A DNA stretch of 64,000 nt from Bacteroidia bacterium (GTDB lineage: Bacteria > Bacteroidota > Bacteroidia > 2-12-FULL-35-15), in assembly GCA_020051175.1 (NCBI GenBank), contig JAGVJJ010000040.1, forward strand, positions 22,175-86,174, read 5' to 3'. Below, piece after piece: positions 3,054 to 36,035 of this stretch. The notes under the pieces are model-generated. The model had not been told where the DNA came from. It did no database searches and saw nothing but the letters and a program-made list of their open reading frames with translations. The position numbers and the translations under genes were made by a program. Position 1 is the stretch's first letter, and each line of letters starts with the position of its first letter.

Positions 3054-3055
3054 CC

Positions 3056-4075: not shown

Positions 4076-4116
4076 CTGAATCATTTTAATAGATTTCAAA
4101 AAACAAAAATTTATAT

Positions 4117-4662: not shown

Positions 4663-4677
4663 GCAGGCAACTGTGTT

Positions 4678-7115: not shown

Positions 7116-7130
7116 AGAAGTGTTTCTAAA

Positions 7131-7166
7131 AGAAAAGCCCGGCAGTTGTATAACTACCGGGCTTTT
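7131..7166. terminator. bidirectional rho-independent terminator hairpin (GCCCGG-cagttgtataacta-CCGGGC plus T-run)
   Basis: Perfect 6-bp GC stem with a 14-nt loop. T-run on the plus strand and A-run upstream serve the convergent DUF2911 and response-regulator genes. Nearly identical to the hairpin at 36046-36085. Confidence 0.6.
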
Positions 7167-7179
7167 CTTATTTAGAATT

Positions 7180-7590: not shown

Positions 7591-7592
7591 AG

Positions 7593-9170: not shown

Positions 9171-9548
9171 ATTTTTTTTTCGTATTTATGAATCATCCTA
9201 TTTTCTGCTGTAAATAGTATGTGCATAGTTGGACCTTGATTGACTGGCTCTAAAAGACAGTTGGTTTAACCAATAATAAAGATAGCGTTTTAAATCAAGT
9301 TTTTAAAATCACGGTTAAAAAATAAAAAGCTGGTTATGCGCTTATGCTGCACAGTTGATTTGCAATCTGCGGATACAGGGGTTACCACTCAAAGATCAAG
9401 AGATGTACCTGGACAATTTTATAAAAAACAGGATGGGTAAAATGGAGCGGATAAACGATGTATTGATAATCGGTATAAGGTAGTGATAATTATTGCAGGT
9501 CCTGAATGCCTGTGTTCATTTAAGACCTGCAATAATTTATATTATCCT

Positions 9549-11456: not shown

Positions 11457-11581
11457 CTGGTAAAAGAGGTTAAATGAATTATTTTAAACTAAATGCAAAG
11501 ATAATTACTATTTATTATTTAAATTTATATAAGATTTATACTTACCAATTGGAATAAATACACAACTATTAATTTTAGAAA

Positions 11582-21082: not shown

Positions 21083-24070
21083 GTGCTAAACTTAATCATC
21101 ATGAAAACATCTGCTACTTATCAAGAGTGCTATAAGCCAAAACAAGGTTTTGGCGCAAGGCTCCTATTTTGTGCATTGCTTTTGAGCTTTATTGGCTTAT
21201 CAAAAGCATTTGCCCAGGCACCTCCGGCTCCGGTTGCCACAGCTGCTACCAATATTACCTGTACAAGCTTTGAAGCGAACTGGAGTGCAGTTTCCGGTTC
21301 AATCGCTTATTTTTTGGATGTCAGTACAGACACAACGTTTTCTACGTTTGTTGGCAGTTTTAATAATCTGAATGTTGGAAATGTGACCACTTTTCTGGTT
21401 ACCGGCATGTCTTCTACATCAGCTTATTATTATAGGGTAAGGGTACAGGATAACAATGGTACAAGCTTAAACTCAAACACCATGACAGTTTATCCAACCG
21501 TAATGGCAACCATTTCACCCATAACTCAGACAATTTGTTCTGGCGATCAGGCTATTTTTGCTATATCGAGTTCTGACCCAAATGCCACCTATAGCTGGAC
21601 AGTTACCCAGGGCAATGTTTCTGGAGCTACGGCTGGCAGTGGAAATGTTATTAATCAAACTTTGGCCGTTACGGGACCAAATTCCGGATACGTTTATTAT
21701 ATGGTAACACCTGTTGGCAATGGATGCACTGGCGGTACTGTAACAGCTTACGTTTCTGTATTGGATTGTCAGGGTAATAGCGGTATATCGTTTGTGGCTC
21801 CACAAAATGGCGCAACCATAAATAACAGGTGTGAGCTTCAGTTTTGTGCTGATTCTGTAGGAATTAATCAGGCGCTGGAAATCAGGGATGCAGCACTGGA
21901 TGTTGTTGCTTACATATACTCTGGTCAGGGCGGAACACATTGTACTGCAATGAATCAATATTATACCGGGACGATACCTTCCGGTTCCAATACTTTCTAT
22001 CTGACTGCAGGTGGTATTTTCTATGATACTGTTACTGTAAATGTTACCGCACCAATTGTTTCGCTTCAAAATGAACTTACATATACACAAACAGCAACAA
22101 CCAATGGTGGTTATGATTTTACAATAAGTGGATTTTCTGCCACCGAAACCTATACTATGGTTTTGAACAATTATTATAACAATCAATACGATACCGTTTT
22201 CGTAAGCAATACTACCACAGCAACCATCTCTCATCAATTTCCATACGATGGCGATTTCTTCGGTGATATTTATGTAACAGCCGACTGTGATGGCTCCATG
22301 TCTCATGACTCGATGTATGTTTCGGTTAATAACAGCTCCTGCTCTAATTTTATAGCTTTGAATTACAGCTCCATCTATGTAAACTCAAACTGTGGATCAA
22401 ATACTGTTGATTTGCAGGGCGGTATTAACTACGGTGGTCTGGGGGCGAATGACTCAAGCCAGGTTACAATAAACTGGGGGGATGGAAATATCCAGACCAT
22501 ACAAATGGCGCACGGTGGCAACACCTCCGGGTATCTTTCATTCCCGTCCATTTCACATACATACAATGCTCCTGGAACATATACCGGCTTTGTTACTGTA
22601 TTCAACGCTAACGCATGTTATGTGGATACCTTAATCCAATCGGTTACAATTGGAAGCACTACCTGCGGAAGCTTAACTGGTAATGTTTTCAGCGATGTTA
22701 ATTCAAACTGTGCTTTGGATAACGGAAGCGATATCGGATTGTCTTACATCTGGATTACTGCCACTGATAACAGCAGTAACGTTTTTTATGCCTGGACCGA
22801 CTACAATGGAAACTATGCATTCAATACCCTTCCAAACGGGGTGTATACTGTTGATTTAGCTTACCTGAACTCCGGCTACTCAATTACTTGCCCTGGTTCA
22901 TTCCCGCAAACAGTAACAATTAATAACAATTCAATTGTAAAAAACTGTGCTGTTACTTGTAGCGGTTCTTTTGATGCTGCCATTACCGGCATCTCTTTAT
23001 GGAGTGGTTTCTTCCCTGGACAGTCGGATGCCATCCTGCCTCATGTTGGTTTATTAAACGCGGCTTGTAATGCTGGTGTATCCGGACAGGTGAAAATTGT
23101 TTTGGATGCCTGCATACAATACACTTCTCCATCTACATACAGTGGTGCTGGTGCTCCTGATGCAGTCATCACTGCTTCAACCGGTGATACACTTGTATGG
23201 AATGTAAGTGATATTACCAACATTGGTACATTCGGATACTACGATTATGCGATTAATACTTTAACCTGTACATCAGCTCAGGTTGGGGATTCAGCGTGCA
23301 TCACAATGATAATCACACCTACAAACGGTGACGCAGATCCAAGCAACAACACATTTACACGTTGCTTTGAAATTGGTGTTAGCTATGATCCTAACAACAA
23401 GGAAGTGATGCCTGCTGGCGAAGGTGCAGAAGGGTTTATACCAGCTGATCAGCCTTCGTTGACTTACACGCTGAACTTCCAGAACACAGGTACTGCAAAA
23501 GCGTGGAACATATATGTGATGGATACTATCGATACTGATTTGGACATCAACAGCATCGAAATATTGAGCGCCAGCCACAAAATGCAGGTGTATACTTTAC
23601 CAAACCGTGCAATTAAGTTTATGTTTGCCGACATCATGTTGCCTGACAGCACAAACGATGAGCCAAACAGCCATGGTTATGTTACTTTCAAAATCAAATT
23701 AAACCCAGGCCTGGCTCCGGGAACTGAAATCGAAAATACAGGTCATATCTATTTCGATTACAATGAACCGGTTGTGACCAACACTACTCTTAATACTATT
23801 GAGTTGCCTTCATCTGTGCAGTCCATCAGTAAGTCATCAGTAGTAAGAGTTTACCCAAATCCTGCAAAAGAAAGTGTAACTGTTTTATCTAACAGCAGCA
23901 GCGCAGGTGTAATAACTGTTACTGATATCTTAGGAAAAACAGTAAAAGAAGTAAAAACCACTTCAGAGAAAACAGTTGTAAATACAACAGATTTGGAAAG
24001 CGGGGTTTACTTCATTAAACTTGCTCAGGACAATGTAATCAGAACAGAAAAAATAATGATTACAAAATAA
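21083..24070 (+). CDS. large T9SS-secreted surface protein (FN3-like, TIGR01451-type conserved repeat domain, T9SS C-terminal sorting domain)
   Basis: Signal peptide. The FN3-like segment TNITCTSFEANWSAV...AYYYRVRV. The conserved-repeat-domain pattern LTYTLNFQNTGTAKAWNIYVMDTID. C-terminal VRVYPNPAKESVTV...GVYFIKL matches the T9SS type A domain. Confidence 0.75.
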   Translation: MLNLIIMKTSATYQECYKPKQGFGARLLFCALLLSFIGLSKAFAQAPPAPVATAATNITCTSFEANWSAVSGSIAYFLDVSTDTTFSTFVGSFNNLNVGNVTTFLVTGMSSTSAYYYRVRVQDNNGTSLNSNTMTVYPTVMATISPITQTICSGDQAIFAISSSDPNATYSWTVTQGNVSGATAGSGNVINQTLAVTGPNSGYVYYMVTPVGNGCTGGTVTAYVSVLDCQGNSGISFVAPQNGATINNRCELQFCADSVGINQALEIRDAALDVVAYIYSGQGGTHCTAMNQYYTGTIPSGSNTFYLTAGGIFYDTVTVNVTAPIVSLQNELTYTQTATTNGGYDFTISGFSATETYTMVLNNYYNNQYDTVFVSNTTTATISHQFPYDGDFFGDIYVTADCDGSMSHDSMYVSVNNSSCSNFIALNYSSIYVNSNCGSNTVDLQGGINYGGLGANDSSQVTINWGDGNIQTIQMAHGGNTSGYLSFPSISHTYNAPGTYTGFVTVFNANACYVDTLIQSVTIGSTTCGSLTGNVFSDVNSNCALDNGSDIGLSYIWITATDNSSNVFYAWTDYNGNYAFNTLPNGVYTVDLAYLNSGYSITCPGSFPQTVTINNNSIVKNCAVTCSGSFDAAITGISLWSGFFPGQSDAILPHVGLLNAACNAGVSGQVKIVLDACIQYTSPSTYSGAGAPDAVITASTGDTLVWNVSDITNIGTFGYYDYAINTLTCTSAQVGDSACITMIITPTNGDADPSNNTFTRCFEIGVSYDPNNKEVMPAGEGAEGFIPADQPSLTYTLNFQNTGTAKAWNIYVMDTIDTDLDINSIEILSASHKMQVYTLPNRAIKFMFADIMLPDSTNDEPNSHGYVTFKIKLNPGLAPGTEIENTGHIYFDYNEPVVTNTTLNTIELPSSVQSISKSSVVRVYPNPAKESVTVLSNSSSAGVITVTDILGKTVKEVKTTSEKTVVNTTDLESGVYFIKLAQDNVIRTEKIMITK

Positions 24071-24091
24071 GGTTTATTCAGGCTTCAATTC

Positions 24092-24207
24092 AAACGGCTC
24101 AGCCCCGGTTTGTCAAGTAAACGTTTCGCAGCGTTAAAGTTTATAAGGTTTAGCACTTCTCTGATACTTTATAGCGAAACACTTGACAAACCGGGGCTGA
24201 GCCGTTT
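24092..24207. repeat. long inverted repeat: 27-bp perfect arms with a 62-nt spacer, extended imperfectly, followed by a T-run
   Basis: AAACGGCTCAGCCCCGGTTTGTCAAGT at 24092-24118 pairs perfectly with ACTTGACAAACCGGGGCTGAGCCGTTT at 24181-24207. An inner CGTTTCGC/GCGAAAC repeat extends the stem. TTTTTT follows. Confidence 0.5.
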
Positions 24208-24582
24208 TTTGTTATGTCCATGAGGAAGTTTTCGCATGAGAACGAAAAAACTTACCATAACCTTATGGAAACTCCTGCAAAGTAAAAAAATTTTTTAACT
24301 TTGGAAATTTGTATAAAATACGAGATAACTAATTATAGTTCAGGCAGGAATTATTTTGGAATAGATAAGGAGCAAATAAACAGGCGAAACAACTAAATAA
24401 CGGAATTTTACATTTGTTGCACTGCTTGGAATTTTGGGGTAATGCCAGGTTTGGAAAAACAATATCTCAAAATTAAGTATTAAGTGTAAAAAAATGCCAA
24501 ATAGAAGAGCAGATAACTGGTGGGCATTAATAAGATATTTTGAAAACCAATTACAAAACCTTTAAATAAGTCCGGAAGATAT

Positions 24583-25500
24583 ATGAAATGGGAGAAAAAG
24601 GGCAGAATATTTGAACCGAAAGGTCAGTTTGAATGGATGCGTAAATATGGTATTGTGCCAACTCCTGTATACTTAAGAGAAACAAATAGTATTCGTATTT
24701 TCTTTGCAACCGCAACATCAGATAATATTGGTCGAATTACCTATATGGATGTTGAAGCGAATAATCCATCTAATATCATAAAACAACCAGATAAAATTTT
24801 ATTATACGAAGGGGAACCAGGAACATTTGATGATTGTGGGGTTAATCCAACCAGTTTTGTTGTTCATGAGGGAAAAGAATATCTTTATTACGTGGGTTAT
24901 GAACGTTCTTTCAAAGTACCGTTTACTTTGTTTCCGGGAATATCCGTTGGGAATGTTAAAGATGGATTTAAACGTGTGAAGCATGTTCCTTTTATTGACC
25001 GGTCCGAAAAATATCCATATTCGCTTGCAGCCCCATTTGTTTTAATAGATAAAAATAAATTCAAATTGTGGCTATGGTTGGGGGTGAAGTGGGTAAAAGT
25101 GAACGGAAAAGATTATCTAAGCGCTAAAATCGGGTATGCGGAATCTGAAAATGGTTTGGATTTTAAAATACTACACGACAACTGTATTGTACCCAATCAG
25201 GATAATGAATTCTCCGTTGGCCGGCCTTGGGTTATAAAAGACGGAAGTATTTATAAAATGTTTTATTCTGTCAGATATGTTGATAAACTTTACCGCTTAG
25301 GGTATGCCGAATCTGATGATGGTATCAATTGGATACGAAAGGACGAACAAATAGGAATAGATGTTTCTTCTGTTGGATGGGATAGTGAAATGATTTGCTA
25401 TCCGGCTGTTGTAAAAACCGACAATAAAACATTCTTATTTTATAATGGCAATAACAATGGCATATCTGGTTTTGGATATGCGGAACTTGTTAATGAGTAA
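24583..25500 (+). CDS. putative 5-bladed beta-propeller glycoside hydrolase/phosphorylase-like protein (GH43/GH130-like fold), cytoplasmic
   Basis: 305 aa, no signal peptide. Repeated hydrophobic-Gly-acidic blades (GRPWVIKDGSIYKMFYS, TSFVVHEGKEYLYYVGY). First gene of a 5-gene operon. Confidence 0.45.
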   Translation: MKWEKKGRIFEPKGQFEWMRKYGIVPTPVYLRETNSIRIFFATATSDNIGRITYMDVEANNPSNIIKQPDKILLYEGEPGTFDDCGVNPTSFVVHEGKEYLYYVGYERSFKVPFTLFPGISVGNVKDGFKRVKHVPFIDRSEKYPYSLAAPFVLIDKNKFKLWLWLGVKWVKVNGKDYLSAKIGYAESENGLDFKILHDNCIVPNQDNEFSVGRPWVIKDGSIYKMFYSVRYVDKLYRLGYAESDDGINWIRKDEQIGIDVSSVGWDSEMICYPAVVKTDNKTFLFYNGNNNGISGFGYAELVNE

Positions 25501-25520
25501 AAAATTAACACATTAAATAT

Positions 25521-26273
25521 ATGGCAGAAATTGAATGGACAAGAGCTTCTCAAGAACAAAAAGAAGCACGTAAAGCGTTTAGGGAAATGTATATCAATAC
25601 CCCAATACCGATTGAAGATATTTTTGTAAACTTCGGGTTGTATATACGTAGTTCATACCTTGCCAACATACTTTGTATGAATGAAATTTACCAGATGATT
25701 TTGCCGATTCCAGGAGTAATAATAGAATTTGGTACCTGGTGGGGTAGTAACCTTACTTTGTTTCATAATCTCAGGGGGGTATATGAGCCTTATAATTACA
25801 GCCGTAAAGTAATTGGTTTTGATACCTTTACCGGATATCCTGATATCCTTAAGGAAGAAGATAAAAATTCACCGTGGCTAAAAACAGGTAATTATGCAGT
25901 ACCTGATGGATATAAAAGTTATCTGGAACAAGTATTAAGCTATCACGAAAAGGAAAATCCGCTTCCGCATAAAAAGAAATTTGATTTGGTGCAAGGTGAT
26001 GTTACAAAAACGTTACCCCAGTATCTAAAAGACCATCCTGAAACCATTGTTGCTATGGCTTTTATTGATTTGGGAATGTACGAAGCAACTAAAAAAGTGT
26101 TGCAGGAATTAAAGCCCCGCTTAGTAAAGGGCAGTATTATAGTGTTTGATGAAATCAATTGCCCGGAAATGCCCGGAGAAACCATCGCATTAATGGAGGT
26201 CTTTGGGTTAGATAAATACCGGATTGTGCGTTCAAAGTATACGCCTGACAGAAATTTTCTGATTATTGAATAA
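25521..26273 (+). CDS. class I SAM-dependent methyltransferase, TylF/MycF (Methyltransf_24)-like
   Basis: GVIIEFGTWWGSN (glycine-rich SAM loop) and IDLGMYEATKKVLQELKPRLVKGSIIVFDE parallel the TylF macrocin O-methyltransferase motifs. Confidence 0.55.
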   Translation: MAEIEWTRASQEQKEARKAFREMYINTPIPIEDIFVNFGLYIRSSYLANILCMNEIYQMILPIPGVIIEFGTWWGSNLTLFHNLRGVYEPYNYSRKVIGFDTFTGYPDILKEEDKNSPWLKTGNYAVPDGYKSYLEQVLSYHEKENPLPHKKKFDLVQGDVTKTLPQYLKDHPETIVAMAFIDLGMYEATKKVLQELKPRLVKGSIIVFDEINCPEMPGETIALMEVFGLDKYRIVRSKYTPDRNFLIIE

Positions 26274-26317
26274 ATACGGATGACCTTCCCCCTTTAATGG
26301 GTAAATTTATTTGAATA

Positions 26318-27289
26318 ATGGCAATTACAATCCAGGCATACAATAGTAAAGACCGTGATCAATGGGATGCTTTTACCAGACGAGCCGATAATGCATATTT
26401 CCTGTTCGAAAGGGGGTTTATGGAATATCACAGTCATCGTTATGTCGACAATTCTGTATTGCTTTTTGATGAGAACGTTTTAGTTGGTGTATTTCCTGCC
26501 AACCGGAAAGAAGATACTGTATATACACATCAGGGACTAACGCATGGAGGCTTGGTATTAACGGAAAGGAAGAATATTAAAAAGCTATTTACCTATTTTT
26601 ATGCTTTGTTTACGTATTACAAAACTCAGGGGATAAAGCATATTGTTTATAAACCATTACCGGGGTACCTCAGCAAAAGTATTAATGATATAGAGCACTT
26701 TATACTTAATATGTGTAATGCAATTACGGTTAAAGTAGATACTTCGTTTGTAATAGACTATAATAATGAAATCAGGATTCAGGAACGTAGAAGGCGCAGT
26801 GTTAAAAAAGGTGTAACGTCTTCTGCTGAAATACGGATAGATAATAATTTCGATGCTTTCTGGAACAGTATATTAATACCCAATTTAATGGATAAGTATG
26901 GAGTGGCACCTATCCATTCTTTAGAAGAAATTCACCTCTTGCATCAACGTTTTCCAGATAAAATAACACAGGCAAATGCGTATATAAATAACGAAATTGT
27001 AGCAGGAATAACGCTTTTTGATTTTGAAACCTGTATTCACACGCAATACATATCTTCTAATAATTACGGACGTGATTCAGGAGCTATTGACACTTTATGT
27101 AATTATTTAATACATTTATTCCAGCCTGTTAAAAAACATTTCAGCTTGGGTACAACCAACAATAATGGAAAGGATATTAATATCGGCTTGTATGAATGGA
27201 AAGAAGGGTGGGGAGCTAAAACTCATGCCCATTTTCATTATCGCTTAAATACCGAAGAAATAAATACATTAGAAAGGTTTCTTGATTAA
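26318..27289 (+). CDS. putative FemAB-like / GNAT-fold acyl(aminoacyl)transferase
   Basis: 323 aa. Two-lobed GNAT-like architecture inferred from composition and genomic context only. Confidence 0.35.
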   Translation: MAITIQAYNSKDRDQWDAFTRRADNAYFLFERGFMEYHSHRYVDNSVLLFDENVLVGVFPANRKEDTVYTHQGLTHGGLVLTERKNIKKLFTYFYALFTYYKTQGIKHIVYKPLPGYLSKSINDIEHFILNMCNAITVKVDTSFVIDYNNEIRIQERRRRSVKKGVTSSAEIRIDNNFDAFWNSILIPNLMDKYGVAPIHSLEEIHLLHQRFPDKITQANAYINNEIVAGITLFDFETCIHTQYISSNNYGRDSGAIDTLCNYLIHLFQPVKKHFSLGTTNNNGKDINIGLYEWKEGWGAKTHAHFHYRLNTEEINTLERFLD

Positions 27290-27295
27290 AACAAA

Positions 27296-28237
27296 ATGTC
27301 TAAAATCACCATTATTACTCCGTGTTATTATAACGAGAAAAATATCCCTGTTACTTTTCCCGTGCTTTTGGAGAATGAAAGAAATTTCCCCGCGGGTACT
27401 GAGTTTGAATATATTTTTATTGATGATGGCTCTAAAGATGGAACATTTGACCAGCTGAGAATAATTCAAGCTGCCCACCCTTCAAAAGTAAAAGTATTAA
27501 AGTTATCTAGAAATTTTGGCTCGAACAATGCAAGTTTTGCGGGCATGTGTCATGCAACAGGTGATTGCTGTGTAATTTTAGCTGCCGATTTACAGGATCC
27601 TCCGGAATTGATCCCTGAATTGTTCAAACATTGGAAGAATGGATATAAGCTGGTGCTTGCGCAAAAAGCAAGCCGGGAAGATACTTTGCTTACGAAACTG
27701 TTTTCTGGTACTTATCACACCTTAATTCGTAAAACCGCTTTGAAAAATTCACCTAAAGGGGGGTTTGACTTATGGCTCTTTGATAAAACATTAAAGGAAG
27801 AGGTTATCAGGATGAACGAAAAGAATTTTTTTCTTCCTTATATGTTTATTTGGATGGGATTCGAATACGTGAGTATTCCATATACAAGGCGCAAACGCGA
27901 AATCGGAAAGTCGGGCTGGACAATGTCGAAGAAAATTAAATCGTTCATTGATACTTTTGTCGCTTTTACATATTTACCTCTGCGTATTATAAGTGTTGCA
28001 GGAATTATTCTCGGGCTACTCTCAATAGTATACGCCATAATAATTATTATAGATAAATTTATTCGTGGAATAAACGTTGAAGGCTGGACATCTTTAATGA
28101 TAGTTTTACTGTTTGTATCGTCCTTCATTATGACTTCGTTGGGAATTATTGGGGAATATTTATACCGCACATTAGATGCATCAAGGAATCGCCCTAACTT
28201 TATTATAGACAAAAAAATTGATGAAACGAACAATTGA
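27296..28237 (+). CDS. GT2 polyprenyl-phosphate glycosyltransferase (ArnC/GtrB/DPM1-like)
   Basis: IITPCYNE...IFIDDGSKDGT...ADLQDPPE are GT-A DXD-type motifs. Two C-terminal TM helices, as in ArnC/GtrB. Confidence 0.85.
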   Translation: MSKITIITPCYYNEKNIPVTFPVLLENERNFPAGTEFEYIFIDDGSKDGTFDQLRIIQAAHPSKVKVLKLSRNFGSNNASFAGMCHATGDCCVILAADLQDPPELIPELFKHWKNGYKLVLAQKASREDTLLTKLFSGTYHTLIRKTALKNSPKGGFDLWLFDKTLKEEVIRMNEKNFFLPYMFIWMGFEYVSIPYTRRKREIGKSGWTMSKKIKSFIDTFVAFTYLPLRIISVAGIILGLLSIVYAIIIIIDKFIRGINVEGWTSLMIVLLFVSSFIMTSLGIIGEYLYRTLDASRNRPNFIIDKKIDETNN

Positions 28238-29747
28238 GCGTTCGGAAAAATATATCAGCCCCATTTCCTTTATGCTTATACATAAACAAAAAATTGAAAA
28301 AATTGAAAACCGGATTTTAAGTGTTTTATTATACGGAGTTTTACTGGTTTATTTATATCAATTTATGTTGGTTGCCGGCAAGTATAAAACATTCACGACC
28401 GATGAAAAGTTTTATTACATTGAAGCCAAGGCAATTTCAGCGAATAACATATACCAGACACCTGCCAGTCTGGATGGTAATACATCGTTCATAGGCGGCT
28501 TTGGTTTTCATGGGCTGAGTTATGCGTTGAAAGACGGCTGGCTGGCTAAGCTTTTTTTTTGTTCAGATGATCCTCCTCTTTTGTGGAACAATGTTTTGAC
28601 CTGCCTGCTAACATTGGCAATAGTTTTTTTATTCAAATCTTTTAGTTTGAATACTCGAATAAAAATTGCATTGCTAATTGCAACCCATTATGTATTGTTT
28701 TACTATACACTTTCGTACATGCAGGAAACGATTCACTACCTTTTTGCAGTAATAGCATTGTGGAATTTATACCTGCTTTATACAAATCAGAACGGAGATA
28801 ACAGGAAATATTTATACTCCTACCTGTTACTGGTTATAATTGCCATAACATTTCGATATGGTTGGTTTATTTGGGGCTTGGGGCTACTGCCATTGGCGAA
28901 GAATTATATCAGCTTTTTTAAATGGTGCGGTTTAGCTATTGCTTTAGCACTATTTGGTATTTTTGTCAATCGCTACATTGCATCACCTTATCCTTACGGT
29001 CACGTTGCCGATAAGATAACGGATATGGAAAATTTTTCATTGCTGAGGGCAGTAGAAATTGCCGTTGATAATTTTTGCAACACTATACACATGTTTATTG
29101 TGCCTGGCAAAAAAATTGACACAACTGTTATGCGTTACCTGTTTTTGGTTTTATTATTTATTAATACATGGTATGCAATAATAAAACGCAACCGTTTTAT
29201 TATTGCATGTGCATTAGTTGCCTGGGGCTATTTTTTAGCAACAATGACTTTTTATGTGGCGTTCTGGGGATACGATGAGAGATCAATGGCTGTACTTAAC
29301 CCTTTGCTGGCTTTTTCATTGGTCGGAACTAGCAACAAGTGGATATTTTATCCGGTTGTTTTAGTTCAATTGTTGCTTTTTCCTGGAATTGTAAAGGAAA
29401 CAGAAGAACGTAATCTGGTATCGATAAATGCAAATGCGCCAAACCCAGTATACCTTGCTGTACAAAATGCCCATTCAAAAATCAGCAACTTAATTACCGA
29501 TGATACTGCAGTTGTGGTTCAAATCAATATTAATTTGGTAAAGCATGGGTCCCTCGATTACTTTAATGAATTTCCACTTGTAAATATCAAAGGACACCCC
29601 ATACATTACAGGGTTTACAGGAACGGAAACGATTTAAGAAAAATCCATTTTCCAACGTATTTTTTGAACCCGCCACCCGAAAGGTTGCCACCCAACTGTA
29701 GATTAATTTATTCCGACTCTTGGATGAATCTATATCGTACCTTTTAA
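28218..29747 (+). CDS. polytopic membrane protein, putative GT-C fold glycosyltransferase (ArnT/PMT-like)
   Basis: 509 aa, more than 10 predicted TM segments. FTTDEKFYYIEAKAIS in the first extracytoplasmic loop resembles the ArnT/PMT DE-x-RY-x-EIA motif. Overlaps the GT2 gene by 20 nt, suggesting translational coupling. Confidence 0.4.
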   Translation: MMKRTIERSEKYISPISFMLIHKQKIEKIENRILSVLLYGVLLVYLYQFMLVAGKYKTFTTDEKFYYIEAKAISANNIYQTPASLDGNTSFIGGFGFHGLSYALKDGWLAKLFFCSDDPPLLWNNVLTCLLTLAIVFLFKSFSLNTRIKIALLIATHYVLFYYTLSYMQETIHYLFAVIALWNLYLLYTNQNGDNRKYLYSYLLLVIIAITFRYGWFIWGLGLLPLAKNYISFFKWCGLAIALALFGIFVNRYIASPYPYGHVADKITDMENFSLLRAVEIAVDNFCNTIHMFIVPGKKIDTTVMRYLFLVLLFINTWYAIIKRNRFIIACALVAWGYFLATMTFYVAFWGYDERSMAVLNPLLAFSLVGTSNKWIFYPVVLVQLLLFPGIVKETEERNLVSINANAPNPVYLAVQNAHSKISNLITDDTAVVVQININLVKHGSLDYFNEFPLVNIKGHPIHYRVYRNGNDLRKIHFPTYFLNPPPERLPPNCRLIYSDSWMNLYRTF

Positions 29748-29942
29748 AGCAAATAAAAATAGCTTTTCATATAGGTGATTCTACATTTTGCAGCCTTTAA
29801 ATTATATTGAAGTAGATTTCACGGTTATGTTGTTTAAACCAAAGTCAAAAGTACTCTATCTAATCTGTTTTATATATTAAAACGGTTTCTCATCCGCATC
29901 ATCCCTCTTCAAACATTCACAAATCGCGCCCTGATTATTCTG

Positions 29943-29960
29943 TCCCGATAGCTATCGGGA
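29943..29960. promoter_or_regulatory. 18-bp perfect palindrome TCCCGATAGCTATCGGGA upstream of the RidA gene (candidate operator)
   Basis: Perfect dyad symmetry, about 150 nt upstream of the start at 30112. No T-run follows, so it is unlikely to be a terminator. Confidence 0.3.
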
Positions 29961-30111
29961 TTATTTCAGAATCTGTGCGTTGAATCGCGGTTGTTTTTAA
30001 GTTGTTGTTGGTCAGCGACTTAGTTTGTTGTTAGATATTAATGCTACAATCCCCAAATTGCTTTTCTCCCCCATTTTCGCTATCTTTGCGCTCCTTTTAA
30101 AACCATAGAAA

Positions 30112-30532: not shown

Positions 30533-30940
30533 ATGAGAATTATTGTTTTTTTCATTCTCATACTGATCTCTAAGCTGGTATTTGCCCAGGATGAAGATAA
30601 AAGAGGAACAATAAAACTTAAAAAACCATCTGACTCATGTGTTGCAATGGTGTTGGGGTATAGCGGAGAAAATTTTGTAGACAAAGAGAAGATTGCAAAC
30701 ATCAAAAAGGTAGAGTTAAATGAAGGTTGCGACTATAAAATAATTTCATTCTCGGTAATGTATACGGATAGTGAGGACTGGACAAGAATAATACCTTCTG
30801 TTGGCGACAAAGTTGGACACAATGTTGGCGATCAGATAAAAGGAGCATCCGGTGTAACGTTTGGCAACATTATAGCAAAAAGCAATACTACGGGGGAAGA
30901 AATAAAATTGCCTCCCATTATTTTAATAATAACTGATTAA
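30533..30940 (+). CDS. hypothetical small secreted protein
   Basis: MRIIVFFILILISKLVFAQ is a signal peptide. The track ORF starts at 30515; the later Met at 30533 avoids overlap with ridA. Ends ATGA, overlapping the ileS start. Confidence 0.4.
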   Translation: MRIIVFFILILISKLVFAQDEDKRGTIKLKKPSDSCVAMVLGYSGENFVDKEKIANIKKVELNEGCDYKIISFSVMYTDSEDWTRIIPSVGDKVGHNVGDQIKGASGVTFGNIIAKSNTTGEEIKLPPIILIITD

Positions 30941-33900
30941 TGAAAAAATACACCGAATACAAAGGCCTTGACCTTTCCCAAACAGCGAAGGATGTTCAGA
31001 AGAGCTGGGATGAGAATAATATATTTGAAAAATCCATCACTTCACGTGAAGGCAAAGCACCTTTTGTATTTTACGAAGGGCCACCAAGCGCGAACGGCTT
31101 GCCGGGGATTCACCACGTAATGGCCCGTTCCATTAAAGATATATTCTGCCGTTATAAAACCCAAAAAGGGTTCCAGGTGAAACGTAAGGCGGGCTGGGAT
31201 ACGCACGGTTTGCCGATAGAGTTAAGCGTTGAAAAGGCTTTGGGCATTACCAAAGAGGACATCGGTAAAAAAATTACTGTGGAGCAGTACAACATCGAGT
31301 GCCGCAAGGATGTAATGAAATACACCGATAAGTGGGAGGACTTAACAAAGAAAATGGGCTATTGGGTGGACATGCAGCACCCCTACATTACTTACGATAA
31401 CAAATACATTGAGTCCGTTTGGTGGTTGCTGAATAACCTGTACAGCAAAGGAATGCTGTACAAAGGGTTTACTATACAACCGTATTCTCCCGCAGCAGGA
31501 ACAGGGCTTTCATCGCATGAGCTGAACCAGCCGGGTTGTTACAGGGATGTGAAGGACAGGACTGCAGTTGCGATGTTCCGCCTCTCCCCAACCCTCTCCC
31601 AAGGAGAGTGGGCTTTTACCGAATTAAAGAAAGGATTATCGGAAGAAGAGCTTAACAATACTTACTTTTTAGCATGGACTACTACACCTTGGACATTGTC
31701 TTCAAATACTGCGCTTGCGGTTGGAAAAAATATTGAATATGTTTTGATAAAAACCCAGAATCAATTTACTGGAAAAGAAATTAATGTAATTGTTGCTAGT
31801 GATTTAGCAGCAAAGTATATTAAAGGCTACGGTTCCAAATTTGAAGAAAATGTAATTACTGGATGGGGGTTAGACGCATCAGGTAATCTACAAGCATTTA
31901 ATCCTAAGGAACCATATAATAATTGGAAGCAACTTGCCAAATTCATTGGTTCTGATATAGCAGGTTTAAAATATGAGCAACTACTACCATTTGAAGCCAA
32001 CAAATTCGTTGAGCTAAATGGTAAGAACCTCCCCTTTGGGGAGGCGGGAGGGGCTGTAATCATTGGCGATTTCGTTACAACCGAAGACGGTACTGGCATC
32101 GTACACATCGCGCCAAGCTTTGGTGCGGACGACTTTAGAGTGGCCAAACAAAACGGCATTGGCTCATTAACATTGGTTGACAGACGCGGTAAGTTTTTAC
32201 CGGAAGTAAAAGACGGCATCTTCCTATACGGTGAAGAGTACGTAAAAGAAGCCTATTTGACAGATGCTGAAAAAGAAGCCGAATTCCAAAACCAAAAGAA
32301 AGTTCTTGAAGCAAACGGCAAGATAAAAGAGCTGAAAGCATACTTAAGCGTGGATGATCGAATCATCTTAAAACTGCAGGAGGAAGGCAAACTCTTCAAA
32401 AAAGAAACCTACGAGCACAGTTACCCGCATTGCTGGAGAACAGATAAACCGGTTTTGTACTATCCACTGGACAGCTGGTTCATCAAAACTACGGACTACA
32501 AAGACCGTATGATTGAGCTGAACAAAACCATCAATTGGAAGCCGGAATCTACCGGTACAGGGCGTTTTGGTAACTGGCTGGAGAATCTGAACGACTGGAA
32601 TTTATCGCGTTCCCGCTTCTGGGGCATTCCAATTCCTATCTGGACAAGCGAAGACAAAACAGAGCAAATCTGCATTTCTTCTGTGGAGGAATTGCAGAAG
32701 GAAATCACCAATGCTGTTGCAAAAGGAGTGATGAAAGACAGTCCACTTGCGGCTTTCAGAGCGGGTGATATGAGCGAGGCCAATTACAACACCTTTGACT
32801 TGCACAAACCTTATGCAGATAATATTGTGCTGGAGCGCAATGGTAAAAAGCTTTTCCGTGAGCCGGATTTGATTGACGTTTGGTTTGATTCGGGCGCAAT
32901 GCCTTATGCACAGCTGCATTACCCCTTTGAGAACAAAGAATTGATTGACGGCCCATCCCCAACCCTTCCCCAAGGGAAGGGAGTAAGCCCTAAGTATCAG
33001 ACAGCAAGAAATTCATCCTATAATTTGCTGAAAGAATTAGCTATAGAAAGAAAAAAACAACAAACAGAGAGTGAAACAATTCTTTGGAATTTGCTTAAGG
33101 GAAAACAATTAGGAAATTATAAATTCAGACGCCAGCATATAATTGATGAGTTTATTGTGGATTTTGTTTGCCTTCAGAAAACTTTGGTTGTTGAAGTAGA
33201 TGGTGGTTATCATTCCAAACCGGAAATACTTGAAGCCGATACTCTAAGAACAAATATTCTGAACGAATTGGGTTTTAAAGTTTTAAGATTTAAAAATGAA
33301 GAAGTGATAAACAATACTGAACAAGTATTAAAAATAATTGAAACGGCACTTAACACACAGAAAACCCTCCCCTTGGGGGAGGGCAAGGGAGGGGCTTTCC
33401 CTGCCGATTTCATCGCAGAAGGGGTGGATCAAACACGCGGATGGTTCTTTACTTTACATGCGATAGCTACCATGTGCTTTGACTCTGTGGCTTACAAAAA
33501 CGTAGTCAGCAATGGCCTGGTATTGGATAAAAACGGACAAAAAATGAGCAAACGCTTAGGCAATGCGATTGATCCGTTTGTGACCATTGAAAAATACGGC
33601 CCGGATGCTACACGCTGGTACATGATTACCAATGCGGCACCCTGGGACAACCTTAAATTTGATATTGAAGGCATAGGGGAGGTGCAGCGCAGTTTCTTCG
33701 GTACGCTTCACAATACATACTCATTCTTTGCATTGTATGCCAATGTGGATGGTTTTGTATACAAAGAAGCCGAAATTCCGGTAATTGATCGCCCGGAAAT
33801 TGACCGCTGGATTTTATCCGAGCTGAATACCTTGATAAAAAAGGTGGATGAGGCTTATTCTGAATACGAGCCTCACCGTGCCGGTCGTTACATCGAAACC

Positions 33901-34914
33901 TTTGTGGATGAGCACCTTAGCAACTGGTATGTACGTCTGTGCCGCAGACGTTTCTGGAAAGGCGAATACTCACACGATAAAATAGCTGCTTACCAGACAC
34001 TTTACCGTTGTATGGAAGTAATTGCCCAGCTTTCGGCTCCAATAGCTCCCTATTTTATGGACAGGCTGTATTCCGATTTAAACAGTATCACAGGTCGTGA
34101 TAAGGCAAGTTCCATCCATTTAAGCAATTTTCCGGAATCAGATACTTTCCTGATTGACAAGGATTTGGAAGAACGTATGGAGCTGGCTCAGAAAGTATCT
34201 TCCATGATATTGTCGATACGCAAAAAGGAGAATATCCGTGTGCGTCAGCCTTTGAATAAAATCCGTATTCCGGTTTTAGACGAATCGTATAAGACTAAAA
34301 TTGAGGCGGTTAAGGATTTGATTTTGTCGGAAGTAAATGTGAAGGAAATTGAGTTTGTGAGCGAGGCGGATACCCAAATTGTGAAGAATATGAAGCTGAA
34401 TTTCAAGACTTTAGGCAAAAAATGCGGCAAACATATGAAGGCGGTTCAGGCCTTTGCAAATGAAAATGCACAGGCTGTAATTTCCGGTATCGAAAAAACA
34501 GGAAAATTCGATATAAAGATTGATAATGAGGTAATTGTATTGGATACGGAAGATGTGGAAATTATTCCGGTAGACATCCCGGGATGGAAAGTGGCCAATT
34601 CGGGACAAATAACTGTGGCCCTGGATGTTACATTAACTGCAGAACTGCGGGAAGAAGGCCTGGCGCGTGAGTTGGTAAACCGTATCCAGAACCTCAGAAA
34701 GGAAAGTAACCTGGATGTAACAGACAAGATTGACGTGAAAATTCAGAGAAATTCGGCTATAAATGAAGCGATTAACAATAATTTAAACTATATTTGCACC
34801 GAAATTTTGGCGTCTTCATTGGAACTTGTCGACACTTTGGAGGCAAAAATAGGTGCTGAGATTGAACTAGACGAACAAATAAAGACCTTAATCACCATTA
34901 CTAAATTAAATTAA
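30940..34914 (+). CDS. ileS: isoleucine--tRNA ligase (type 2), carrying three in-frame insertions
   Basis: P-x-ANG/HH region (PPSANGLPGIHHVMAR). TTTPWTL editing-domain motif. KMSKRLGN (KMSKS motif). At 1324 aa it is about 170 aa longer than typical Bacteroidota IleS; the extra length comes from insertions at about residues 215-225, 362-372 and 672-818. Confidence 0.95.
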   Translation: MKKYTEYKGLDLSQTAKDVQKSWDENNIFEKSITSREGKAPFVFYEGPPSANGLPGIHHVMARSIKDIFCRYKTQKGFQVKRKAGWDTHGLPIELSVEKALGITKEDIGKKITVEQYNIECRKDVMKYTDKWEDLTKKMGYWVDMQHPYITYDNKYIESVWWLLNNLYSKGMLYKGFTIQPYSPAAGTGLSSHELNQPGCYRDVKDRTAVAMFRLSPTLSQGEWAFTELKKGLSEEELNNTYFLAWTTTPWTLSSNTALAVGKNIEYVLIKTQNQFTGKEINVIVASDLAAKYIKGYGSKFEENVITGWGLDASGNLQAFNPKEPYNNWKQLAKFIGSDIAGLKYEQLLPFEANKFVELNGKNLPFGEAGGAVIIGDFVTTEDGTGIVHIAPSFGADDFRVAKQNGIGSLTLVDRRGKFLPEVKDGIFLYGEEYVKEAYLTDAEKEAEFQNQKKVLEANGKIKELKAYLSVDDRIILKLQEEGKLFKKETYEHSYPHCWRTDKPVLYYPLDSWFIKTTDYKDRMIELNKTINWKPESTGTGRFGNWLENLNDWNLSRSRFWGIPIPIWTSEDKTEQICISSVEELQKEITNAVAKGVMKDSPLAAFRAGDMSEANYNTFDLHKPYADNIVLERNGKKLFREPDLIDVWFDSGAMPYAQLHYPFENKELIDGPSPTLPQGKGVSPKYQTARNSSYNLLKELAIERKKQQTESETILWNLLKGKQLGNYKFRRQHIIDEFIVDFVCLQKTLVVEVDGGYHSKPEILEADTLRTNILNELGFKVLRFKNEEVINNTEQVLKIIETALNTQKTLPLGEGKGGAFPADFIAEGVDQTRGWFFTLHAIATMCFDSVAYKNVVSNGLVLDKNGQKMSKRLGNAIDPFVTIEKYGPDATRWYMITNAAPWDNLKFDIEGIGEVQRSFFGTLHNTYSFFALYANVDGFVYKEAEIPVIDRPEIDRWILSELNTLIKKVDEAYSEYEPHRAGRYIETFVDEHLSNWYVRLCRRRFWKGEYSHDKIAAYQTLYRCMEVIAQLSAPIAPYFMDRLYSDLNSITGRDKASSIHLSNFPESDTFLIDKDLEERMELAQKVSSMILSIRKKENIRVRQPLNKIRIPVLDESYKTKIEAVKDLILSEVNVKEIEFVSEADTQIVKNMKLNFKTLGKKCGKHMKAVQAFANENAQAVISGIEKTGKFDIKIDNEVIVLDTEDVEIIPVDIPGWKVANSGQITVALDVTLTAELREEGLARELVNRIQNLRKESNLDVTDKIDVKIQRNSAINEAINNNLNYICTEILASSLELVDTLEAKIGAEIELDEQIKTLITITKLN
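31584..31613 (+). repeat. solo copy of the palindromic left-end repeat (CCCCAACCCTCTCCCAAGGAGAGTGGG), in-frame inside ileS
   Basis: About 80% identical to the left terminus of the element at 32953-32990. Encodes LSPTLSQGEW, compared with PSPTLPQGKG in the full element. Core palindrome CTCTCCCAAGGAGAG. Confidence 0.5.
32026..32055 (+). repeat. solo copy of the palindromic right-end repeat (AACCTCCCCTTTGGGGAGGCGGGAGGGGCT), in-frame inside ileS
   Basis: Nearly identical to the right terminus at 33363-33396. Encodes NLPFGEAGGA, compared with TLPLGEGKGGA. Core palindrome CCTCCCCTTTGGGGAGG. Confidence 0.5.
32953..33393 (+). mobile_element. 441-bp miniature element with palindromic terminal inverted repeats and a DUF559 (Vsr-like endonuclease fold) domain, inserted in-frame in ileS
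   Basis: Left end CCCTTCCCCAAGGGAAGGG (32963-32981). Right end CCCTCCCCTTGGGGGAGGG (33365-33383). Each end is itself a palindrome and the two are inverse-related. The cargo peptide RRQHIIDEFIVDFVC...LVVEVDGGYH...LGFKVLRFKNEEV matches DUF559. It lies between conserved IleS residues ELIDG and AFPADFIAEG, which are contiguous in orthologs. Confidence 0.6.
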
Positions 34915-34925
34915 CAAAATACACA

Positions 34926-36035
34926 ATGGCAAAAAAAGCGCAAAAAGGCAAACCGGTAAAAAAAGCCGCGAAACCTGCTAAGCCTGCTAAAAAAGCAGCT
35001 GCGAAACCAGCAAAACCAGCAAAAAAAGCAGCACCTAAAAAGGCCGCTAAGCCTGCTAAGAAAGCGGTTGCAAAGCCAGCTAAAAAAGCAGCTAAGCCTG
35101 CACCTAAAAAAGCCGCAAAACCAGCTAAAAAAGTAACTGCAAAGCCAGCAAAAAAATCGATTTCAAAACCGGTTAAAAAAGCTGCTAAGCCAGTTAAAGC
35201 TGCAGGCAAAGCAAAACCTGTTGCAAAGAAATCTGCAAAACCTGCAAAAGTAAGCAAGCCGGTTGCTAAAAAAGTAAGCAAGCCGGTTGCTAAAAAAGTA
35301 AGCAAACCTGTTGCAAAAGCAGTAAAAAAGGTAAGCAAACCTGTTGCTAAACCAATAGCGAAAAAAGCAGAAAAACCAGTAGCGAAAAAGCCGCTTGTTA
35401 AGGAAGCTGTAAAAAGCCCCGTTAAACCAATTGAAAAAGCAACTGCTAAAACAGATGCTAAAAAAACGACTGAGAAACCCGTTGTTGCTGTTAAACCAGT
35501 AGCTCCTGTTGTTAAAAAAGCTGAGCCAAAGAAAAAGTACGAAGCTGATCTTGATGATGATGGTAGCTCCAGGGATGATGAGCCAATGGTTGTAGAATAC
35601 AAAACTCCAAGCATTCAACGCCCTATGGGACCAATACCAAAACCACATATCAATACCGATAACAGAACACGTTATACCGATTCAGAATTAAAAGAATTTA
35701 AAGAGTTGATCCTTAAAAAGCTTGAAGAAGCGCAAAAGGATTATGAATTGTTAAAGAGCACACTTTCTCACAAAGATGATCATGGTACTGATGATACCTC
35801 TCCAACATTCAAATTGCTGGAAGATGGTTCTGATGTATTGTCAAAAGAAGAAACAGCTCATTTGGCAAGCCGCCAGGAGAAATTCATCCAGAACCTGCAA
35901 AATGCGCTTATCCGTATTGAAAACAAAACATACGGTATCTGCCGCGCTACAGGCAAGTTGATCTCTAAAGAGCGTTTAAGAAGCGTGCCTCATGCTACTT
36001 TAGCGATTGAAGCTAAATTGGAGCAGCATAACTAA
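34926..36035 (+). CDS. DksA/TraR family protein fused to an N-terminal histone-H1-like Lys/Ala/Pro repeat region
   Basis: Residues 1-190 are KAAKPAKK-type repeats. The C-terminal 130 aa (DSELKEFKELILKKLEEAQ...YGICRATGKLISKERLRSVPHATLAIEAK) resembles the DksA/TraR coiled coil plus a C-terminal finger, with only one Cys retained. Confidence 0.65.
   Translation: MAKKAQKGKPVKKAAKPAKPAKKAAAKPAKPAKKAAPKKAAKPAKKAVAKPAKKAAKPAPKKAAKPAKKVTAKPAKKSISKPVKKAAKPVKAAGKAKPVAKKSAKPAKVSKPVAKKVSKPVAKKVSKPVAKAVKKVSKPVAKPIAKKAEKPVAKKPLVKEAVKSPVKPIEKATAKTDAKKTTEKPVVAVKPVAPVVKKAEPKKKYEADLDDDGSSRDDEPMVVEYKTPSIQRPMGPIPKPHINTDNRTRYTDSELKEFKELILKKLEEAQKDYELLKSTLSHKDDHGTDDTSPTFKLLEDGSDVLSKEETAHLASRQEKFIQNLQNALIRIENKTYGICRATGKLISKERLRSVPHATLAIEAKLEQHN
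34944..35400 (+). repeat. tandem/cryptic coding repeats (AAG-CCN-GCN-AAA units), including an exact 24-nt tandem duplication at 35250-35297
   Basis: GTAAGCAAGCCGGTTGCTAAAAAA occurs twice in tandem, followed by a degenerate third unit. Low-complexity DNA encoding KPAKKAA. Confidence 0.6.

Follow-up and report, generated by a model that had tools for sequence, protein, structure and literature searches.

A five-gene operon for a probable Gtr/Arn-type extracytoplasmic glycosylation pathway in an uncultured Bacteroidia bacterium, with a predicted GT-C-fold transferase outside the curated families

Layout and boundaries of the operon

The window analysed in this study is a 64-kb stretch of DNA from an uncultured Bacteroidia bacterium, in which five plus-strand open reading frames (ORFs) at positions 24583-29747, designated g1 to g5, form a compact operon (Table 1). 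A Gtr/Arn-type glycosylation system has three components, of which the operon appears to encode two, a polyprenyl-phosphate glycosyltransferase of family 2 (GT2) and a predicted GT-C-fold membrane transferase, together with sugar-tailoring enzymes of its own. The five ORFs, their coordinates and the gaps of 20, 44 and 6 nt that separate g1 from g2, g2 from g3, and g3 from g4 agree with the ORF list of the window, as an earlier note on this DNA, referred to below as the original prediction, had described them. The 20-nt overlap of g4 and g5 that it had also described holds for a TTG start of g5 at 28218 (17 nt for the ATG at 28221), but in most g5 homologues the start corresponds to M19 (ATG at 28272), which leaves a 34-nt gap and no overlap. 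Judging from these homologues, 28272 is the probable true start of g5, giving a protein of 491 amino acids (aa).

Table 1. Genes and candidate control elements of the operon (positions within the window)
Feature	Positions	Strand	Description
g1	24583-25500	+	305 aa; cytoplasmic five-bladed beta-propeller of the GH130/GH43/DUF377 kind
g2	25521-26273	+	250 aa; putative CalS11-like S-adenosylmethionine-dependent O-methyltransferase of a nucleoside diphosphate-linked 6-deoxyhexose
g3	26318-27289	+	323 aa; Fem-type tandem-GNAT transferase
g4	27296-28237	+	313 aa; GT2 polyprenyl-phosphate glycosyltransferase of the GtrB/ArnC/DPMS type
g5	28218-29747	+	509 aa; predicted GT-C-fold membrane glycosyltransferase of an uncatalogued family
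Terminator-like element	24092-24207	.	perfect 27-nt inverted repeat with a 62-nt spacer, followed by a T-run
Candidate Bacteroidetes-type -7 boxes	24296-24416	+	TAACTTTG at 24296 and TACATTTG at 24409, in the 512-nt leader; weak

Intergenic regions of 512 nt upstream and 364 nt downstream flank the unit. The terminator-like repeat ends the upstream gene, which encodes a cargo protein of the T9SS (type IX secretion system), and constitutes the 5' boundary of the unit. Promoters of the Bacteroidetes type carry a -7 box with the consensus TAnnTTTG. In addition to the two weak candidates in the leader, a further TAnnTTTG box was identified at 30081, upstream of the gene after the operon; the same scan found no such box between g1 and g5. 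A sigma-70 promoter scan, which returned 20 sites versus 25.9 in shuffled controls, was not used, and the terminator-like sites found by scanning were not above expectation. The Rfam scan of the operon and leaders yielded a single chance-level miRNA match (E = 0.028, 28.9 bits versus a gathering score of 211).

The glycosyltransferase pair g4 and g5

Sequence comparison strongly supports the placement of g4 in the GtrB/ArnC/DPMS branch of GT2, which is the firmest of the five assignments. The Pfam GT2 model was matched with 73 bits, and profile matches to the PDB covered the full length of both GtrB (5eke, E = 2.5e-52) and ArnC (9hwj, E = 2.8e-37), with residues 2-308 of g4 aligning with residues 27-327 of GtrB and 8-314 of ArnC. 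The N-terminal domain also aligned with DPMS. The translation contains the motifs DDGS, ADLQDPPE and a C-terminal GEYLYR...RP, as well as two C-terminal transmembrane helices (234-252 and 261-285). The full-length alignments, the two helices and the ADLQDPPE motif bear out the earlier description of g4 as an ArnC-like GT2 protein with C-terminal helices. By its sequence scores, g4 is nevertheless not an orthologue of ArnC or of PgfS, its best NCBIfam match, because both equivalog cut-offs were missed widely (147.7 bits versus 529 for ArnC and 192 versus 500 for PgfS).

No match to g5 was found in Pfam, NCBIfam or the PDB sequences. A word-indexed search recovered 55 relatives, which lack Pfam domains and come without exception from metagenome bins of Bacteroidia or Bacteroidota, and an exhaustive search with the g5 profile against 1.84 billion cluster representatives recovered 296 at E ≤ 1e-3. 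No GT-C family of Pfam was matched by 83 distant relatives (17-33% identity), and alignment of g5 by hhalign with co-located PMT_2-like proteins gave a probability of 1.8%.

The AlphaFold (AF2) model of g5 (pLDDT 87.7, pTM 0.85) was compared with the PDB by Foldseek. Ranks 1-10 were all occupied by GT-C enzymes (AglB, AftA, PglB, ArnT, STT3 and ALG3, probability 1.00), with E values of 1.5e-5 to 7.6e-4 for ranks 1-8 and of 7.7e-3 and 1.8e-2 for ranks 9 and 10; the ArnT structures among the best matches were 5ezm and 5f15. Below rank 10 were other GT-C enzymes and low-probability matches to transporters and G protein-coupled receptors (probability ≤ 0.44). The model indicates a GT-C fold for g5, which by its sequence belongs to no curated family of Pfam or NCBIfam. 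The GT-C-like assignment of the 509-aa protein in the original prediction agrees with these ten best matches, eight of which have E ≤ 1e-3.

The first-loop motif DE-x-x-YY-x-E-A that had been noticed in g5 is real (D62, E63, Y66, Y67, E69 and A70) and conserved down to 17% identity. In close relatives D62, Y66, Y67, E69 and A70 are invariant, and in the 83 distant relatives D62 is invariant and E63, Y66, G99, Y102, G107, E170, R213 and N289 are each at least 90% conserved. The helices of the model, hydrophobicity and the positive-inside rule together suggest a topology of about 11 transmembrane helices that begins in the cytoplasm, since the N-terminus carries many K and R residues, and that has loop 1 on the outer side of the membrane. 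With this topology, the periplasm would contain the DE helix, a YMQE loop and, at the C-terminus, the alpha/beta domain of 100 residues (410-509). The association of g5 with GtrB/ArnC-type GT2 genes, described below, would fit a polyprenyl-phosphate sugar as its donor.

A polytopic membrane protein without a family match could also be an O-antigen polymerase, a ligase or a flippase. This was considered highly improbable for g5, since its ten best folds are all GT-C and no Wzy, WaaL or Wzx was present among the 50 fold matches listed, and since the conserved acidic first-loop motif, the C-terminal domain that is predicted to be periplasmic and the consistent association with polyprenyl-phosphate GT2 genes all point to a glycosyltransferase. 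The original prediction had named a missing GT-C fold, a DE motif not conserved in homologues, or a likeness to an O-antigen polymerase or a flippase as observations that would tell against it, and none of these was made.

Putative sugar-tailoring enzymes g1 to g3

The g2 protein matched the Pfam models TylF (33.6 bits, cut-off 23) and Methyltransf_24 (31.8 bits, cut-off 26.3). It is more closely related to CalS11 (PDB 4gf5), with which residues 9-232 aligned at E = 4e-64 and about 44% identity over 224 residues, so that the TylF-like methyltransferase of the original prediction can be sharpened to a CalS11-like one. The PDB deposition describes CalS11 as a TDP-rhamnose 3'-O-methyltransferase, and this homology points to methylation by g2 of a sugar that is still bound to its nucleotide.

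Searches with g3 yielded no match in Pfam and nothing useful among PDB chains. Its sole NCBIfam match at E ≤ 10 was TIGR03019, the PEP-CTERM-associated FemAB family, with 33 bits versus a cut-off of 260, and a few of its homologues carry PF13480. The family profile of g3 matched a single PDB entry, the aminoacyl-tRNA-dependent peptide synthase 9wqw (E = 5e-6). The AlphaFold (AF2) model of g3 (pLDDT 92.3) bore out the FemAB-like assignment at the level of fold, the best matches being Sbb17/Sba18, FemA and FemX with TM scores of 0.65-0.75 (E = 5.8e-14 for Sbb17, 1.8e-12 for FemA and 1.9e-12 for FemX). The aminoacyl-tRNA-dependent enzymes A-PGS and MprF scored 0.55-0.58, and acetyl-CoA-dependent tandem GNATs 0.34-0.51. 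On this ranking of fold matches, g3 is a candidate aminoacyl-tRNA-dependent N-aminoacyl transferase, which would act on an amino sugar. A precedent for such a reaction is the Fem-like enzyme Orf11, which transfers glycine from Gly-tRNA to the amine of the amino sugar in streptothrisamine (PMC12945691). The literature searched on FemAB enzymes in O-antigen clusters contained nothing specific. The ORF at 62429-63421 was tried as a second Fem-like gene of the window and was rejected, as BLASTP detected no similarity to g3.

The original prediction of a cytoplasmic glycoside hydrolase-like propeller for g1 was upheld in part. There is a weak family match and no transmembrane segment was predicted, but the Pfam cut-off for GH130 was missed (24.4 bits versus 26). 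More than 5797 homologues, labelled "GH43/DUF377", are distributed over Bacteroidota, Actinobacteria and Proteobacteria, and many of them carry PF04041. The family profile matched the 1,2-beta-oligomannan phosphorylase 9fj8 (E = 1e-16) in a circularly permuted blade register, in which LEDPRI of 9fj8 pairs with SVGRPW of g1. The Asp of EDPR, which we take to be the GH130 motif holding the catalytic Asp, is thereby replaced by a nearly invariant R214. Other conserved residues of g1 are D83, D84, D267 and E269. The sequence evidence weakly suggests that g1 is GH130-like, and in fold only. The gene is the fastest-varying of the unit and accompanies g3 in many genomes; g1 is assumed to act on the same sugar, for instance by non-Leloir glycosyl transfer or by trimming. 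Nothing specific was found in the literature on DUF377 in polysaccharide synthesis.

Variation in g1 was also seen on comparison with the near-identical strain L001, where about 200 of 310 mismatches lie in g1, its leader and the beginning of g2, and roughly 65 more in the upstream T9SS cargo gene (window positions 24000-25750 and 22250-23250 were compared). The g3 to g5 proteins are 100% identical between the two strains, with four nucleotide differences between 25750 and 30500. The block of mismatches looks like a recombination tract that swapped the g1 allele (92% amino acid identity).

Conservation and modularity in related genomes

In the sister species L023 (GCA_049276555.1), the five genes recur in unchanged order, with amino acid identities of 84, 94, 77, 90 and 74% for g1 to g5, and between the same flanking genes, which encode a histidine kinase, a LytTR regulator and a T9SS cargo protein on one side and RidA on the other. 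Therefore, the arrangement is not a chance juxtaposition. The GC content of the operon (0.35-0.36) is lower than that of its flanks (0.40-0.44; window positions 24001-30000), which would fit a gain of the cassette, at this site, by the ancestor that L023 shares with the window organism. Conservation as a unit, which the original prediction had expected of related genomes, thus holds for the sister species, but further away the operon is modular and not fixed, its parts occurring as a tailoring cassette of g1-g3, in most cases accompanied by FdtA, DegT and an acetyltransferase, and as exchangeable GT2/GT-C pairs.

In L024, the order is hexapeptide acetyltransferase-g1-g3-g4-g5, without g2, and directly upstream lies a cassette of GT2, formyltransferase, DegT and a g5 paralogue, which is Arn-like in gene content. 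The loci L011 and L105 contain FdtA(-FdtA)-methyltransferase-NeuD/VioB-type acetyltransferase-g1-g3-g4 and no g5, to which L011 adds g2 (91% identical) and a second copy of g1. The L011 genes belong to an eleven-gene same-strand run (2843-11930) that reads PagL-DUF2807-FdtA-methyltransferase-acetyltransferase-PhyH-like hydroxylase-g1-TylF-g1-g3-GT2, with PAP2 and PMT_2 genes upstream on the opposite strand. PagL is a lipid A deacylase, and the run ties the cassette to lipid A remodelling genes. A close g4 orthologue follows g3 directly in L011, L023, L024 and L105, at gaps of no more than a few nt or with an overlap (76-90% identity in L011, L023 and L024).

Relatives of g1 and g3 were also identified in Wzm/Wzt O-antigen clusters of another complete genome and of a Sphingomonadales bin. 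Both clusters carry FdtA and a hexapeptide acetyltransferase; one has a g2 relative, and DegT is present only in that of the Sphingomonadales. More distant relatives of g3 (33-41% identity) were found in 35 metagenomic loci, each 12 kb or longer, drawn from L025-L104, where a g3-DegT-Wzx trio is highly conserved and FdtA lies nearby: DegT was adjacent to g3 in 31 of the 35, whereas FdtA was present in 27 and a Wzx-type flippase in 26. A g3-DegT pair with no hexapeptide acetyltransferase was present in 26 of the 35, and in the g3-DegT-Wzx clusters the Fem-like protein may be the sole N-acylating enzyme of a 3-amino-6-deoxyhexose route.

These neighbourhoods bear on a different view of g3, in which it would be an acyl-CoA-dependent N-acyltransferase that replaces FdtC/QdtC, the sugar being simply N-acylated. 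NCBI labels relatives of g3 as "GNAT family N-acetyltransferase", and the 26 loci with DegT and no hexapeptide acetyltransferase are what would be expected if g3 were the sole N-acylating enzyme. However, the fold of g3 is nearer to the aminoacyl-tRNA-dependent enzymes than to the acetyl-CoA-dependent tandem GNATs, its only PDB profile match is an aminoacyl-tRNA-dependent synthase, and a NeuD/VioB-type acetyltransferase coexists with g3 in the closest cassettes. An acyl-CoA-dependent g3 is possible, although on balance we doubt it.

Among representative genomes of 185,579 species, relatives of g5 were found at 9 loci, in most of which a g4-like GT2 gene lies within 10 kb. These relatives mostly adjoin TatC and lie inside arrays with g4-like GT2, aminotransferase and epimerase genes. 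The arrays at L006 (35-19160), L007 (8139-20105), L009 (8438-18593) and L024 (657-16844) each contain one to three copies of the g5 family. Their membrane-protein genes number seven to ten, of which as many as nine encode polytopic proteins, and fall into at least four families: GT87-like, g5-like, PMT_2-like and an unannotated one (495-515 aa, 12-14 transmembrane segments). Between them lie genes for GT2, DegT, epimerase and formyltransferase proteins, and each PMT_2-like gene is preceded by one for a protein of 149-170 aa. These small proteins were considered as GtrA-like flippases and rejected, having at most one transmembrane segment.

The picture that emerges is of a conserved module for sugar synthesis and loading (g1-g3-g4) that is combined with an interchangeable GT-C protein, a pattern known from Gtr systems. 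Alternatively, the operon might combine two pathways, with g1 to g3 serving a cytoplasmic O-antigen assembly encoded elsewhere and g4 and g5 adding a different, simple sugar. Relatives of g1 to g3 in Wzm/Wzt and Wzx clusters without a GT-C protein, and GT2/GT-C pairs without g1 to g3, are in accord with this division, but the recurrent succession of g3 and a close g4 orthologue in four loci and the lack of an internal promoter box in the window unit argue against it. Division of the operon between two pathways was therefore judged rather unlikely.

Proposed pathway

Taken together, the observed protein families and folds, motif conservation and gene associations, along with the predicted topology of g5, suggest that the operon encodes a Gtr/Arn-type extracytoplasmic glycosylation pathway, in which a methylated and probably aminoacylated 6-deoxy(amino)hexose is transferred to lipopolysaccharide (LPS). 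We regard this as probable, with an appreciable share of doubt. From these observations we infer the sugar, the donors, the order of the steps and the acceptor, as follows.

The pathway would start from a dTDP-6-deoxyhexose made by genes outside the window. Since g3 relatives have DegT and FdtA in their neighbourhoods, the best candidate for it is a 3-amino-3,6-dideoxyhexose made along an FdtA/DegT route. By homology to CalS11, g2 would then O-methylate the nucleotide-bound sugar, and g3 would add an acyl group to its amine, most likely an amino acid supplied by an aminoacyl-tRNA. The finished sugar would be loaded by g4 on undecaprenyl phosphate (Und-P) at the inner membrane face, a step for which the family assignment is strong and the nature of the sugar presumed. 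Some flippase would move the lipid-linked sugar across the membrane, and g5, as its fold and motif suggest, would hand it on, in the periplasm, to a glycan of the envelope. LPS, either its lipid A-core or its O-chain, is the most likely acceptor. LPS and lipid A are favoured because the cassette is found with PagL, PAP2 and PMT_2 in L011 and elsewhere in O-antigen clusters. The general type of pathway is well established (PMC11127046), and the ArnC/ArnT-type logic of the original prediction, with a GT2 and GT-C pair acting on a tailored sugar, finds support in the family and fold results for g4 and g5.

Several observations weigh against this proposal. Neither FdtA nor DegT homologues were found by tblastn of the 64-kb window, and there are no Rml genes either, so the identity of the sugar is indirect. 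No candidate flippase (a small protein with several transmembrane segments, or one of the MATE/Wzx type) was found in or adjoining the operon. The catalytic Asp of GH130 is not conserved in the alignment of g1 to the hidden Markov model. The TM scores of the g5 fold matches are moderate, at 0.39-0.51 (0.44-0.51 for the nine best), and neither Pfam and NCBIfam nor hhalign provided a sequence-level tie between g5 and a curated GT-C family. GT2/GT-C pairings differ between genomes, and in L003 the closest g4 relative adjoins a PMT_2-like protein and not a g5 relative; adjacency thus does not prove partnership. Finally, lipid A or LPS as acceptor draws on a single related locus. In the window, tblastn likewise detected no homologues of the hexapeptide acetyltransferase, PagL or PAP2.

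A single candidate resembling a flippase was noticed in the window, at 3056-4662 and thus 20 kb away from the operon. It is a stand-alone LPG_synthase_TM protein with a relationship to the MprF flippase domain, and its gene precedes one of the cytidylyltransferase-like kind.

A protein could be the acceptor instead, if g4 and g5 were a protein O-glycosylation pair similar to PgfS/PgfM or Ppm1/PMT. The best NCBIfam match of g4 is indeed PgfS, which functions in streptococcal protein glycosylation, and PMT and oligosaccharyltransferases are among the fold matches of g5. The PgfS score of g4 is, however, far under the equivalog cut-off, the strongest folds of g5 include ArnT and AftA, which are directed to lipids and glycans, and in related loci the cassette is linked to O-antigen clusters and lipid A genes. 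Protein O-glycosylation consequently appears improbable to us.

Possible relation to type IX secretion

The original prediction had described the neighbourhood as dense in T9SS cargo, and as a description this is accurate, as five Por_Secre_tail proteins are encoded in the window. One could accordingly suppose that the operon makes the T9SS anchor sugar, with a VimA-like g3 furnishing an amino sugar with an amino acid whose alpha-amine stays free, with g4 and g5 installing this sugar, on the periplasmic side, on a glycan similar to A-LPS, and with the T9SS sortase coupling the C-termini of cargo proteins to that amine. Both VimA and g3 match TIGR03019, and the presence of Ser or Gly on the linking sugar of the T9SS depends on VimA (PMC7468200). 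The window cassette is without the NeuD/VioB-type acetyltransferase that precedes g1-g3 elsewhere, and hence an added amino acid could keep a free amine. One of the five cargo genes lies directly upstream of the operon, as it does in L023, and T9SS genes or cargo occur near the relatives in L003, L007, L009 and L011.

On the other hand, cargo genes are frequent in such genomes, and proximity to them therefore carries little weight. The match of g3 to TIGR03019 amounts to only 33 bits, and g3 is at most a putative orthologue of VimA. Relatives of g3 are tied to FdtA/DegT and to Wzx or Wzm/Wzt clusters, also outside Bacteroidota, and not to the Wbp route for uronic acids. In addition, the window has a separate cluster with a VimE-like deacetylase 30 kb from the operon, and the g5 family is tiny, with 296 representatives and 9 loci, versus a T9SS that is phylum-wide. 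We give little credence to the operon as the source of the anchor sugar.

The separate cluster, at 58990-63421, directly follows a T9SS cargo gene (57309-58901, minus strand) and encodes WecB, the VimE-like deacetylase (DUF7033; NF053580 at 164 bits versus a cut-off of 440) and an N-acetyltransferase of the AAC(3)-like type, along with an ORF that weakly resembles polysaccharide deacetylases. Possibly the cluster represents the Vim branch of linking-sugar synthesis in a local form.

A sugar with a free aminoacyl amine, placed on the glycolipid of the outer membrane by a periplasmic route that uses Und-P as carrier and a new GT-C family, could also provide a second solution to T9SS cargo attachment, distinct from Wbp/Vim, or a cationic decoration of LPS similar to 4-amino-4-deoxy-L-arabinose (L-Ara4N). 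The chance of this seems small. If it were true, the arrays of up to nine polytopic transferases, from four families or more, in related genomes would represent an unrecognised periplasmic glycan assembly line of the Bacteroidota.

Comparison with known systems

In the Gtr system, GtrA is the flippase, GtrB synthesises Und-P-glucose and a serotype-specific GtrC is the GT-C enzyme (PMC11127046). The operon resembles it in that g4 is a full-length homologue of GtrB (5eke) with a GT-C-fold protein encoded next to it, and in that the GT2/sugar module is conserved and the GT-C protein is interchangeable and fast-diverging. It differs in having no GtrA-like flippase and three extra tailoring enzymes, the Gtr donor being plain glucose, and g5 is unrelated in sequence to the curated GT-C families.

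The Arn pathway modifies lipid A with L-Ara4N by means of ArnB, ArnA, ArnC, ArnD, ArnE/F and ArnT. Here the likeness lies in the ArnC homologue g4, in ArnT among the best folds of g5, and in an N-acylated amino sugar that would, in the operon, likewise be carried on Und-P. The g5 paralogue of L024 lies in a GT2-formyltransferase-DegT-GT-C cassette, and the related cassette of L011 is accompanied by PagL, PAP2 and PMT_2. Unlike the Arn proteins, g4 scored only 148 bits versus the ArnC cut-off of 529 and g5 had no match to PMT_2 (GT83, PF13231); the operon furthermore is without ArnA, ArnB, ArnD and ArnE/F, and its sugar is probably a 6-deoxyhexose derived from dTDP-glucose and not a pentose.

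In Xanthomonas campestris, region 3 of the wxc cluster (wxcK/L/M/N/O), as Vorholter and colleagues are said to have reported in 2001, adds a side branch of 3-acetamido-3,6-dideoxygalactose (Fuc3NAc) to the O-antigen. Its likeness to the proposed pathway is that it joins FdtA/FdtB/FdtC-type genes to a GtrB-like GT2 and a variable membrane protein, which attach a 3-amino-3,6-dideoxyhexose after polymerisation. Of the wxc genes, wxcO is hypervariable and wxcK/L/M are conserved (PMC13133917). The wxc region has the GtrA-like WxcN, in contrast to the operon, and no Fem-like, CalS11-like or GH130-like genes.

The GT136 system of Citrobacter youngae (ORF12-15) is a three-component system for pentofuranose addition (PMC11127046). 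It also has an orphan GT-C protein that was recognised by its predicted fold, and by description it shares the overall logic and an extra periplasmic domain after the transmembrane bundle. In that system, however, the donor is made from phosphoribosyl pyrophosphate (PRPP) via a phosphoribose synthase and not by a GT2, and a MATE flippase is present.

The Wbp/Vim system belongs to the same phylum as the operon, and its VimA, in Porphyromonas and Tannerella, is a FemAB-like protein of TIGR03019, matched weakly by g3, that puts Ser or Gly on the amine of an amino sugar (PMC7468200). The substrate of VimA is a 2,3-diamino uronic acid from the Wbp route, whereas relatives of g3 are tied to the 3-amino-6-deoxyhexose of FdtA/DegT. 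CalS11 (3tos, 4gf5), to which g2 is similar as described above, functions in the biosynthesis of calicheamicin, a natural product, whereas the context of g2 is a cell-envelope glycan.

Other features of the window

The isoleucyl-tRNA synthetase (IleRS) gene at 30940-34914 owes its length of 1324 aa to an in-frame insertion of about 454 nt (32946-33399). The insertion specifies an endonuclease domain similar to DUF559/Vsr (PF04480, 114 bits, aa 699-804) and is flanked by the GC-rich palindromes CCCTTCCCCAAGGGAAGGG at 32963 and CCCTCCCCTTGGGGGAGGG at 33365. Strain L001 is without the insertion, its site reading ...ELIDNKKYYPADF..., and the insertion is thus a strain-level polymorphism in an essential gene.

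Two overlapping minus-strand ORFs, at 38820-41393 (857 aa) and 41269-42429 (386 aa), together resemble a single T9SS cargo gene of L023 whose 1202-aa product has Tricorn/PD40, Peptidase_C39_2, Golvesin_C and Por_Secre_tail domains. The split could be due to a frameshift, a pseudogene or a sequencing error. The gene at 34926-36035 encodes a 369-aa protein in which a long K/A/P repeat of the KAAKPAKK type, similar to histone H1, is joined to a DksA/TraR zinc finger at the C-terminus. A spurious long ORF on the antisense strand lies over it.

Conclusions

Extracytoplasmic glycosylation from polyprenyl-phosphate donors drives the diversification of surface antigens, a field in which family GT136 was founded in 2024. 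The logic of the pathway proposed here is known; what is new or undescribed is the GT-C family, its combination with CalS11-like, Fem-like and GH130-like genes, and the arrays with several GT-C proteins. The locus is a compact and testable example of an uncatalogued GT-C family that has no Pfam model (296 representatives), and it draws attention to a widespread tailoring cassette, consisting of a GH130-like propeller and a Fem-like tandem GNAT, which is tied to FdtA/DegT in several phyla. It may also be an instance in which an envelope sugar is aminoacylated in a tRNA-dependent manner. Should the amine of the amino acid stay free, the operon would bear on the alteration of LPS charge in Bacteroidota and on T9SS anchoring beyond Porphyromonas, Tannerella and Prevotella.

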